This document shows, one piece after another, positions 9,687-42,219 of a stretch of DNA of 64,000 bases (within the stretch, counting starts at the first letter, position 1; each line of letters starts with the position of its first letter). The stretch lies in assembly GCA_014728035.1 (NCBI GenBank), contig WJMJ01000022.1:32001-96000 (forward strand), in the 5' to 3' direction. A program made the translations under genes and the position numbers. Under the pieces are notes generated by a model that saw only the letters and a program-made list of their open reading frames with translations, searched no databases and was not told the DNA's origin. Source of the DNA: Promethearchaeota archaeon. Lineage in GTDB: Archaea > Asgardarchaeota > Thorarchaeia > Thorarchaeales > Thorarchaeaceae.

Positions 9687-10036
9687 AATGGCTCTGGAGC
9701 GAAAGCGCAACTGACGGTATCTACAGAATGTAGAAGCTGAGGAAGATCCCGACTATGTGTCGACGCTAGTCCAGCGAGAGCTGGATGGTGAGAACCATGC
9801 TCTGGAAACAGAAACGACACGCCCAGATAGAATATGACAATGATACAGGTCTACCTGTTGAGGATTTATCTGGATACGATGAAACGGTCCATCACTACAT
9901 AGCAATTCCAAGAATAGGTTGATGATTTGTCGACATGAAACCTAGGGTAGGAAGCTTAGTTAGATGTTGCAAGGAATTCAATGGGTAACCTTGAATTCGG
10001 AACAAAATCGGGGCTACTCTTCGGACCAGAGCCATT
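9687..10036 (+). ncRNA. rnpB: RNase P RNA
   Basis: P1 helix AATGGCTCTGG (9687) / CCAGAGCCATT (10036); CR-I-like GAGGAAGATCCCGAC; CR-V-like AACAAAATCGGGGCTA; CAGAAACGACAC motif; no long ORF; TATA-like TTTATG about 25 nt upstream. Confidence 0.92.
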
Positions 10037-10055
10037 TTATAAAAAGAGCGTGTGC

Positions 10056-10160
10056 TCAGGTTGCTTCCAACGCGAGCACTTCGCTTGTAGTTAGGTCACC
10101 GCTCTTGCTAGAGTCTTGGTGAGTGGGAGTTGATAGAATATCTTCAACGCTAGGCTTCAT
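10056..10160 (-). CDS. Putative 34-aa acidic micropeptide (MKPSVEDILSTPTHQDSSKSGDLTTSEVLALEAT)
   Basis: ATG preceded by AGGAGGTAA, an SD overlapping the upstream stop; followed by a hairpin and U-tract. Confidence 0.5.
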   Translation of the reverse strand: MKPSVEDILSTPTHQDSSKSGDLTTSEVLALEAT

Positions 10161-10165
10161 CGATA

Positions 10166-10249
10166 TTACCTCCTGAAGTAGGCATCAGTGATAGCCTTGG
10201 TTGAGGGGGTCTTGGTTGCCTTGATGATCTTGGTCTTGGATACCGCCAT
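10166..10249 (-). CDS. Putative 27-aa basic micropeptide (MAVSKTKIIKATKTPSTKAITDAYFRR)
   Basis: SD GGAGGTAG overlapping the upstream stop; paralogous to 10256-10360 with synonymous and conservative changes. Confidence 0.7.
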   Translation of the reverse strand: MAVSKTKIIKATKTPSTKAITDAYFRR

Positions 10250-10255
10250 TGTGTT

Positions 10256-10360
10256 CTACCTCCGGTAGGTGTAAGCAAAGGTCAGAGCCTTGGTGGTCTG
10301 CTTCTTACGGGTGATGTTCTTTGTCTCTGAGTTGGGTCGGGAGTTAATCGCTAACGCCAT
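10256..10360 (-). CDS. Putative 34-aa basic micropeptide (MALAINSRPNSETKNITRKKQTTKALTFAYTYRR)
   Basis: TATA TTATATAC about 30 nt upstream; shares the TKA[LI]TxAY..RR-stop C-terminus with the next ORF. Confidence 0.7.
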   Translation of the reverse strand: MALAINSRPNSETKNITRKKQTTKALTFAYTYRR

Positions 10361-10428
10361 GATTGTTCACAAGATTACTACTCAGAATCAGTATATAATG
10401 GAAAGCCACGATTATAGGACACTGGAAG

Positions 10429-10447
10429 TAGTCACAATTTGTGACTA
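10429..10447. promoter_or_regulatory. Perfect inverted repeat, candidate operator between divergent promoters
   Basis: TAGTCACAA-T-TTGTGACTA between TATA-like boxes at about 10391-10398 (-) and about 10467 (+). Confidence 0.55.
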
Positions 10448-42128: not shown

Positions 42129-42219
42129 GGCCTTCTATAGGGGCGGTGGTCCGCTTCCGTGGGCTTCAAACCCATGATCGTGCAAGCGATTAGAGTTCGA
42201 TTCTCTTAGGAGGCCGCCA
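42129..42219 (+). tRNA. selC: tRNA-Sec (anticodon UCA), 9/4 fold, CCA encoded
   Basis: Acceptor stem GGCCTTCTA/TAGGAGGCC (9 bp), D-stem GGGGCGG/CCGCTTC (7 bp), anticodon loop CTTCAAA, long variable arm, 4-bp T-stem AGAG/CTCT with TTCGATT loop, G discriminator plus CCA. Confidence 0.96.

Follow-up and report, generated by a model that had tools for sequence, protein, structure and literature searches.

Probable micro-protein operons in multiple copies and their link to membrane transporter genes in one family of Thorarchaeota

Introduction

Three very short open reading frames (ORFs) follow one another on the minus strand of a 64,000-nt stretch of Thorarchaeota DNA (hereafter the window), between a TATA box and a terminal hairpin, and the question that they raise is whether they are translated and, if so, what such a set of peptides might do for the cell. 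An earlier note, written from the letters of the window, had taken them for a genuine small-peptide operon of no known family and had left a non-coding RNA (ncRNA) as the alternative. The comparative analysis reported here indicates that the unit, called the cassette in what follows (window positions 10041-10447, minus strand), is very probably a real, translated operon; that, as judged from the genomes searched, it is a multicopy operon restricted to one archaeal family (Thorarchaeota); and that it probably shares a regulon with membrane transporters, a link from which a possible export of its basic peptides is proposed. The multicopy state, the link to transporter genes and a palindrome upstream of the TATA box had all been absent from the earlier note.

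Interest in Asgard archaea comes from their standing as the closest prokaryotic relatives of eukaryotes; the annotation of their genomes is nearly all homology-based and micro-proteins are largely unrecorded. Throughout the text G000 denotes the assembly to which the window belongs, C151 the contig on which it lies and G001 the genome of a sister species, while L-numbers denote the fetched loci or relatives.

Evidence that the ORFs are coding

Forty-four cassettes were fetched from more than 20 genomes; two of them are cut by contig ends, and in every one of the 42 complete cassettes the same architecture is repeated, with the ORF start lying 88-91 nt from the start of the upstream palindrome (42/42), a recurrence well beyond what chance would give. 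The encoded peptides are of two types. Type-A peptides (alignment A1) are 26-37 aa long, occur in one to three copies per cassette, start mostly with M-A-L-A-x-N and end in S-T-x-A-[IL]-x-x-A-Y-..-R-R, the last dozen residues being the best conserved; the terminal motif is conserved across genera, and both ORF1 and ORF2 of the window, already taken for paralogues in the earlier note, belong to this type. Type-C peptides (alignment A2), represented in the window by ORF3, the acidic character of which had been correctly read, are 29-45 aa long, variable, acidic and Ser/Thr-rich, with the C-terminus E-E-V-L-A-L-E-A-T.

All 42 complete cassettes retain the peptide motifs and the reading frames, although their nucleotide sequences have diverged by about 30% and their lengths have changed. 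The earlier note had named loss of frame or motif in relatives, and frameshifting indels, as findings that would speak against it; what was found instead is a C-terminal motif conserved across genera and indels that are in frame. The ratio of nonsynonymous to synonymous substitution rates (dN/dS), also suggested there as a check, is well below 1 between the copies of G000 and those of G001 (0.41, 0.12 and 0.27 for ORF1, ORF2 and ORF3, respectively); differences at first, second and third codon positions number 67/99/212 in ORF1, 40/25/145 in ORF2 and 81/74/230 in ORF3, and the corresponding ratio of the proportions of differences (pN/pS) stays below 1 when the last 12 codons of each ORF and the part before them are taken separately. 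The body of the transcript folds no better than its shuffles (z +0.42), and no Rfam match was obtained in the cassette stretch.

Codon usage is extreme. The C/G-ending preferred codons of eight amino acids account for 83% of the cases in ORF1 and 88% in ORF2, with a G+C content at third positions (GC3) of 0.74 and 0.78; the genome medians are 0.28 for preferred codons and 0.31 for GC3 (5-95% range 0.20-0.40). All 2391 ORFs of at least 200 aa fall below ORF1 and ORF2 in preferred-codon use, so that the bias is real and stronger than had been claimed. A shift of the same kind, but one that reaches only 0.27-0.54, is seen in the genes for ribosomal proteins with which the window begins; in other genera, too, the type-A ORFs are biased in this way (0.44-0.87). 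Such a bias would reflect translational selection on a product made in bulk, a constraint at the nucleotide level being a possible alternative. Because frames and motifs are kept, dN/dS lies between 0.12 and 0.41, codon bias is extreme and the body of the mRNA is unstructured, the cassette is best regarded as coding rather than as an ncRNA.

Neither type of peptide has a match in Pfam, NCBIfam or the ESM Atlas, and a full-text literature search found no paper on them, so that the statement that no known family is involved holds for Rfam, Pfam and NCBIfam alike. The related statement, that standard gene callers miss the operon, holds in part: the cassette is largely missing from genome annotation, yet a type-A profile retrieves 54 clusters, mostly of peptides of 29-46 aa, among 1.84 billion representative proteins, and gene callers therefore do sometimes call type-A ORFs. 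Two apparent fusions of type A with type C (P0041 and P0050; 70-73 aa; metagenome contigs L101 and L102) were rejected as artefacts of gene calling on short contigs, in which TAG was called as Gln; they thus provide no evidence of an interaction between the two types.

Copies, distribution and concerted evolution

A DNA search of G000 reveals four near-identical copies, in C151 (the window), at C25:6944, at C25:329838 and at C9:14409, which are 89-98% identical to the window copy, the similarity beginning exactly at the palindrome and ending just past the hairpin; two divergent cassettes (C8 and C25:274113-274432) are also present, and G001 carries five copies. Of 36 further genomes of the family, 29 gave partial DNA matches; 24 genomes from elsewhere in the phylum gave none. 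The pattern of the presumed operator, that is, the palindrome with the next half-site, gives more than 200 sites and occurs in 78 of 85 genomes of the family, as compared to 2 of 314 genomes of the same phylum outside it; the reversed pattern, searched as a control, gave zero matches. The public names of proteins homologous to neighbouring gene products assign the group to Candidatus Thorarchaeota.

The flanking sequence shows that three copies of G000 (C151, C9 and C25b) are orthologous by position to three of the copies in G001, the RNase P side being common to C151 and L028. Copies are nevertheless more alike within a genome (86-98% identity) than between G000 and G001 (80-84%), and it follows from the orthologous positions taken together with the higher identity within genomes that the copies predate the split of the two species and have been homogenised by gene conversion. 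Orthologous positions in two species also disfavour a mobile element or a recent transposition; moreover, features of a miniature inverted-repeat transposable element (MITE) were not found, since the ends of the unit do not pair, leaving no terminal inverted repeats, and no flanking target-site duplication is present.

The cassette at C25:274113-274432, the sixth of G000, came from a profile search of all short ORFs of the assembly and is deeply diverged: it contains two diverged type-A ORFs, a Cys-containing type-C ORF (C25:274307-274432) and the same hairpin, but its promoter is of another kind and has two flanking GGTTTG-N5-CAAACC palindromes (unit at C25:274030-274432). That the order of two type-A ORFs, one type-C ORF and a hairpin has been kept despite the divergence and the exchange of promoter suggests that the peptide set is itself the selected unit. 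This pair of palindromes recurs at two further places: close upstream of the C8 cassette, and in front of a gene for a 407-aa protein that lies about 3.4 kb past the end of the window (C151:99423).

Link to membrane transporters

Run against G000, a profile of the promoter finds the four cassettes and several further sites. A fifth unit, on C8, has the full operator (51 bits) followed by a divergent 36-aa ORF, conserved in G001, and then by a gene of the major facilitator superfamily (MFS); partial matches precede a 483-aa MFS gene on C25, a 290-aa multi-pass membrane protein found only in Thorarchaeota (C10:33645; 18 bits) and a 411-aa bactofilin-domain protein (C16:15748; 18 bits). This MFS family is present in 34 of 41 genomes of the archaeal family, in 1-7 copies each, and in L090, L091, L092 and L100 MFS genes are immediately preceded by full cassettes (76-79 bits).

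The downstream gene was inspected for the best cassette of each of 19 relatives, nine of which have a transporter-like membrane gene on the same strand: a gene of the same MFS type (MFS_1) in L006, L008, L015 and L016, with further GGTCAC half-sites in between; an MFS_3 gene (PF05977) in L007, L010, L012 and L020; and, after a single type-A ORF, a homologue of the C10 membrane protein in L018. At the MFS_3 junctions the start codon is found from a few to about 15 nt past the type-A stop, and a Shine-Dalgarno-like GGAG/GAGG is contained in the last type-A codons, least clearly in L020. Type C and a transporter never occur in one cassette among those examined. In two genomes of one genus that belongs to another family (L142 = G164:C213; L143 = G057:C69), operator and promoter stand directly before a gene of the same MFS type, the ATG of which follows the palindrome at 90 or 119 nt, without a micro-ORF; since operator and pump are thus paired in a genus outside the family too, the switch and the pump may predate the peptides, which would have been added later within the family. 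On the evidence of a promoter shared with lineage-specific MFS transporters and of repeated adjacency, cassette and transporters probably belong to one regulon.

A second conserved array is observed between the type-A ORFs and the MFS gene in L006, L008, L010, L015, L016 and L024; it consists of two direct GGTCAC repeats one helical turn apart, a small GGGCA/TGCCC hairpin and an inverted GTGACC, and could serve as additional sites of the operator or, at the RNA level, as a stem ahead of the pump gene. A derivation of type A from the 5' end of the MFS gene was considered and rejected, the profile-profile comparison giving a probability of 0.06% (Probab=0.06, E 0.74). The MFS protein has no sequence match in the PDB, and a 325-aa ORF downstream of the L014 cassette has no significant family match.

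Architecture and expression of the unit

The elements of the cassette in the window are collected in Table 1. All those listed in the earlier note, namely the TATA box, the ORFs of 34, 27 and 34 aa, the junctions at which Arg-Arg-stop doubles as a Shine-Dalgarno sequence and the hairpin with its U5 run, are present where it had placed them.

Table 1. Elements of the cassette, and the RNA gene facing it, in window coordinates
Feature	Position	Strand	Remarks
Operator, perfect 19-bp palindrome, core GTCACA-N3-TGTGAC	10429..10447	-	Presumed operator; sharp 5' edge of the repeat unit
Half-site-like boxes GTGTCC (10417-10422) and GTGGCT (10404-10409)	10404..10422	-	Promoter consensus of 44 copies
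TATA box TTATATAC	10391..10398	-	TATATAC at least 90% conserved in 44 aligned cassettes
TTGTGAA box at the inferred transcription start	10366..10372	-	Conserved in the 44-copy consensus
ORF1, type-A basic micro-protein, 34 aa	10256..10360	-	Ends CGG AGG TAG, carrying the Shine-Dalgarno sequence of ORF2
ORF2, type-A basic micro-protein, 27 aa, paralogue of ORF1	10166..10249	-	Ends AGG AGG TAA, carrying the Shine-Dalgarno sequence of ORF3
ORF3, type-C acidic micro-protein, 34 aa, net charge -4	10056..10160	-	Variable N-terminal part, conserved C-terminus ..E-V-L-A-L-E-A-T
12-bp hairpin	10052..10079	-	Overlaps last codons and stop of ORF3; -19.2 kcal/mol, z -2.6
U5 run (T5)	10041..10045	-	Presumed transcription stop; 3' edge of the repeat unit
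RNase P RNA	9695..10028	+	Rfam RF00373, 159.7 bits; convergent neighbour outside the unit

The 90 nt preceding ORF1 are the part of the unit most conserved at the DNA level: in the 44 sequences the palindrome core, GTGGCT, the TATA box and TTGTGAA are at least 90% conserved, and GTGACC at least 70%. Between the palindrome and the TATA box, the GTGTCC and GTGGCT boxes are spaced by roughly one turn of the helix; both are also present before MFS genes. Such a multi-site operator, composed of the palindrome and two half-sites just upstream of the TATA box, would presumably bind an oligomeric regulator. An ArsR-like regulator (HTH_20/DUF7347) encoded next to the C25 MFS gene was tried as the operator-binding protein and rejected, being found in only 10 of 36 genomes of the family and not being adjacent in G001.

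A further protein with a cassette-type promoter deserves mention. It is about 150 aa long and joins a winged helix at the N-terminus to two membrane helices at the C-terminus (G000 C121:39733-40170, minus strand, equal to L115:1234-1671; orthologues in L118, L121 and L141), and its ATG is located 87-90 nt past a degenerate palindrome in three relatives and about 95 nt past it in G000, four genera being represented. The family occurs in 30 of 36 genomes of the archaeal family and in 0 of 24 outside it; a word-index search for homologues matched the protein only to itself, and the winged helix weakly resembles DDRGK1/PCI-type domains (Pfam DDRGK, 21.9 bits; Foldseek E about 0.01). The protein may be either a member of the regulon or its regulator and, given that the fold matches are weak and of the DDRGK1/PCI type, a role as DNA-binding regulator is not claimed.

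In archaea the distance from TATA box to transcription start is usually about 26 nt, which would place the start of the mRNA about 8 nt before the ATG of ORF1; owing to this position and to the lack of a Shine-Dalgarno sequence before ORF1, its leader would be very short or absent, and ORF1 is probably read as a leaderless cistron. ORF2 and ORF3, on the other hand, would be fed by termination and reinitiation, because the upstream Arg-Arg-stop codons spell a conserved GGAGGT (10258-10263 and 10168-10173) 5-6 nt before the next ATG (stop-to-ATG spacing 6 and 5 nt, respectively). At the other end of the unit, in an alignment of 18 sequences, 93.5% of the hairpin cells pair and compensatory double changes are seen at four pairs, a result matched by 0 of 500 shuffles; slid registers pair to only 20-45%. 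Changes in the coding arm of the hairpin are synonymous and are matched on the non-coding arm, so that both the end of the peptide and the stem are under selection. The covarying 12-bp hairpin and the U-run would together end the mRNA and probably stabilise it.

The convergence with the RNase P RNA gene, stressed in the earlier note, is correct as to positions, the gap being 12 nt, but it has no evident meaning: the other three copies of G000 sit elsewhere, among other neighbours, and the neighbourhood is therefore incidental. The cassette of the window is also surrounded by a DsrE-family gene, a Tsr3-type ribosome-biogenesis gene and Cbf5. Elsewhere in the window (42129-42215, plus strand) there is a selenocysteine tRNA gene (Rfam RF01852, 55.9 bits), in view of which the organism probably uses selenoproteins.

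Possible functions of the peptides

Type A combines a part rich in Lys, Thr, Asn and Arg, predicted to be disordered, with a short, conserved C-terminal helix; its net charge averages +5.6 (range +2 to +9), its grand average of hydropathy (GRAVY) is -0.72, and Cys and Trp are both absent; the mean net charge of type C is -2.9. The AlphaFold model of ORF1 (42-row alignment) has a mean predicted local distance difference test score (pLDDT) of 68, and confidence is confined to a C-terminal helix at residues 24-32, the N-terminal part being disordered. The peak helical moment of type A, 0.49, compares with about 0.7 for three reference peptides, and type A is far less hydrophobic and amphipathic than phenol-soluble modulins or magainin, both comparisons being approximate. 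Some type-C peptides (L046, L049, L051 and that at G000 C25:274307-274432) carry Cys pairs, as CxxC or as several spaced Cys, in their variable part, which hints at metal binding or disulfides in this subset.

The overall explanation that we favour, with a probability of roughly 0.55, is that of a multicopy operon of three micro-proteins which belongs to a transporter regulon and the type-A products of which would work together with the pumps. According to this explanation, the type-A peptides would be the payload, made in bulk when the switch opens and acting at or across the membrane together with the transporters; the peptides, or fragments of them, would most likely be exported, and in cassettes without a pump in cis the type-C peptide could serve as an intracellular neutralising partner. 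A high abundance of the peptides is suggested by the features of their genes. That type-A peptides are made in bulk and exported, or otherwise handled, by the co-regulated pumps is our leading guess as to mechanism, and a tentative one. A bolder version, which we regard as doubtful, is that of a self-contained system of hydrophilic cationic peptides made in bulk from homogenised multicopy operons, an acidic partner inside the cell and dedicated MFS export, all under one operator and used for antagonism or cell-to-cell signalling in the sediment; if it were true, we know of no described counterpart in archaea for such a cationic-peptide export system.

Several points weigh against the favoured explanation. 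MFS pumps usually carry small molecules, and the export of peptides of 3-4 kDa would be unusual for them; type A, being hydrophilic and moderately amphipathic, does not look like the classical membrane-active secreted peptides; and no modifying or processing enzyme, as would be expected of a ribosomally synthesised and post-translationally modified peptide (RiPP), recurs beside the cassettes, clustering of the ORFs within 1.5 kb at 23 loci having yielded only MFS and syntenic housekeeping genes; such enzymes may, though, be encoded elsewhere. Furthermore, a cassette is missing upstream of most MFS genes of the family, from which it follows that the pumps do not need the peptides, and the extreme C-richness of the ORFs could in part reflect a constraint at the nucleotide level rather than translational selection.

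Among the other explanations, the one that takes the products for abundant intracellular micro-proteins, type A binding nucleic acids, ribosomes or another polyanion and type C buffering or antagonising it, with the transporter link reduced to co-regulation in a stress regulon, accommodates many of the observations: a strongly cationic, hydrophilic and largely disordered peptide with one short helix and neither Cys nor Trp, an extreme codon optimisation and a copy number that suit a bulk intracellular protein, and a conserved pairing of basic with acidic partners. We nonetheless hold it to be rather unlikely, as it leaves unexplained why type-A ORFs are repeatedly found directly before three classes of membrane-transport proteins, in four cases translationally coupled to them, and as the peptides show no similarity to nucleic-acid-binding families in Pfam, NCBIfam or the ESM Atlas. 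That coupling is, in turn, the main attraction of regarding type A as cis-acting leader peptides, the translation or stalling of which at the Arg-Arg-stop/Shine-Dalgarno junction would gate the next cistron, be it a transporter or type C: every type-A stop overlaps the ribosome-binding site of the following cistron, which a paused ribosome would control; this cistron is an MFS_3 pump in four genomes (L007, L010, L012, L020); and the best conserved dozen C-terminal residues are those that would lie in the exit tunnel. Most cassettes, the window's included, carry only a payload of 30-40-aa peptides and end in a terminator, purifying selection acts over the whole peptide and not on the C-terminus alone, neither the codon optimisation nor the presence of 4-6 copies would be expected of a sensor, no alternative RNA structures were found (body z +0.42), and MFS genes with the same promoter work without a micro-ORF, all of which makes control in cis improbable.

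Still less credit can be given to a system of the toxin-antitoxin kind, in which one or more basic type-A toxins would be held by a labile acidic type-C antitoxin under autoregulation at the palindrome. Small, coupled, multicopy cassettes with a palindromic operator and a basic/acidic pair are what such a system would look like; type C is missing from many cassettes, however, the operator also serves MFS genes and hence is not devoted to autoregulation of the cassette, type A is predicted to be mostly disordered, and no match was obtained in Pfam or NCBIfam, toxin and antitoxin families included (the PADLOC defence library was not searched). The idea of a non-coding element, whether a structured or sponge RNA with repeated CCAAG/GGAGG motifs, as the earlier note had allowed, or a MITE-like mobile repeat, with ORFs that are fortuitous, draws on the multicopy repeat with its sharp edges and terminal palindromic or hairpin sequences and on the covariation of the 3' hairpin. 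It can hardly be reconciled with frames and motifs that survive the divergence and length changes described above, with an excess of third-position differences and a dN/dS well below 1, with the lack of an Rfam match and of any excess structure in the body, only the 3' hairpin being structured, or with orthologous positions in two species and ends without pairing inverted repeats; we consider it barely tenable. The probability that remains falls to something else, including soluble modulators of the pumps.

Comparison with known systems

A close formal likeness to the cassette is offered by the psm-alpha operon of Staphylococcus aureus, encoding phenol-soluble modulins, in which tandem short ORFs without signal peptide are expressed from a promoter with a regulator and served by a dedicated ATP-binding cassette (ABC) exporter. 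In both units a short mRNA carries several ORFs of 20-35 codons in tandem, every ORF being provided with a ribosome-binding site; signal peptides are lacking, the signals of expression are very strong, a site for a regulator lies at the promoter, and a transporter is genetically linked. The sequences are not similar; the cassette peptides are hydrophilic and strongly cationic, whereas modulins are hydrophobic amphipathic helices, and the archaeal cassettes are multicopy, include an acidic third peptide and are associated with MFS rather than ABC transporters. The leaderless multi-peptide bacteriocins of Firmicutes (aureocin A70, enterocin L50) resemble the cassette products in that cationic peptides of about 30 aa are encoded in tandem, lack a leader and have transport or immunity genes beside them, but those peptides are hydrophobic, Trp-rich and compactly folded, while the cassette peptides are hydrophilic and mostly disordered except for a nine-residue helix and are not known to be antimicrobial, and the usual ABC and immunity genes are absent.

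Leader-peptide control of bacterial efflux or resistance genes by the sensing of drugs or metabolites, as known for erm, the mef/msr leaders, TnaC and SpeFL, also involves a short ORF that ends on or next to the downstream ribosome-binding site and a conserved C-terminal segment; the cassette differs in that it is in most instances a self-standing unit closed by a terminator, that it occurs in several copies with optimised codons, and that selection acts over the whole peptide. Bacterial small proteins that modulate transporters (AcrZ, MgtS, MntS, SgrT) resemble the cassette products in being micro-proteins co-regulated or co-transcribed with a transporter; they are single-copy, mostly membrane-embedded and made in modest amounts, unlike the cassette peptides, which are soluble, basic, multicopy and probably very abundant. 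Finally, the alpha/beta-type small acid-soluble spore proteins, of 60-75 aa and with DNA-binding helices, have a Pfam family to which the cassette peptides show no match, and are twice their length.

Significance

Judging from codon usage and copy number, few coding units of these genomes appear to be expressed as heavily as the cassette, even though annotation largely passes it over. The cassette provides a tractable entry point, as its operator is clearly defined, a regulon of transporters goes with it and its dispersed copies illustrate concerted evolution in exemplary fashion: the operator offers a route to the regulator, the peptides are short enough for synthesis, and the link to MFS genes yields hypotheses that can be tested, namely export, modulation of the pump and leader-peptide control. 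Should the peptides prove to be secreted effectors or signals, they would constitute, to our knowledge, the first such system in Asgard archaea.

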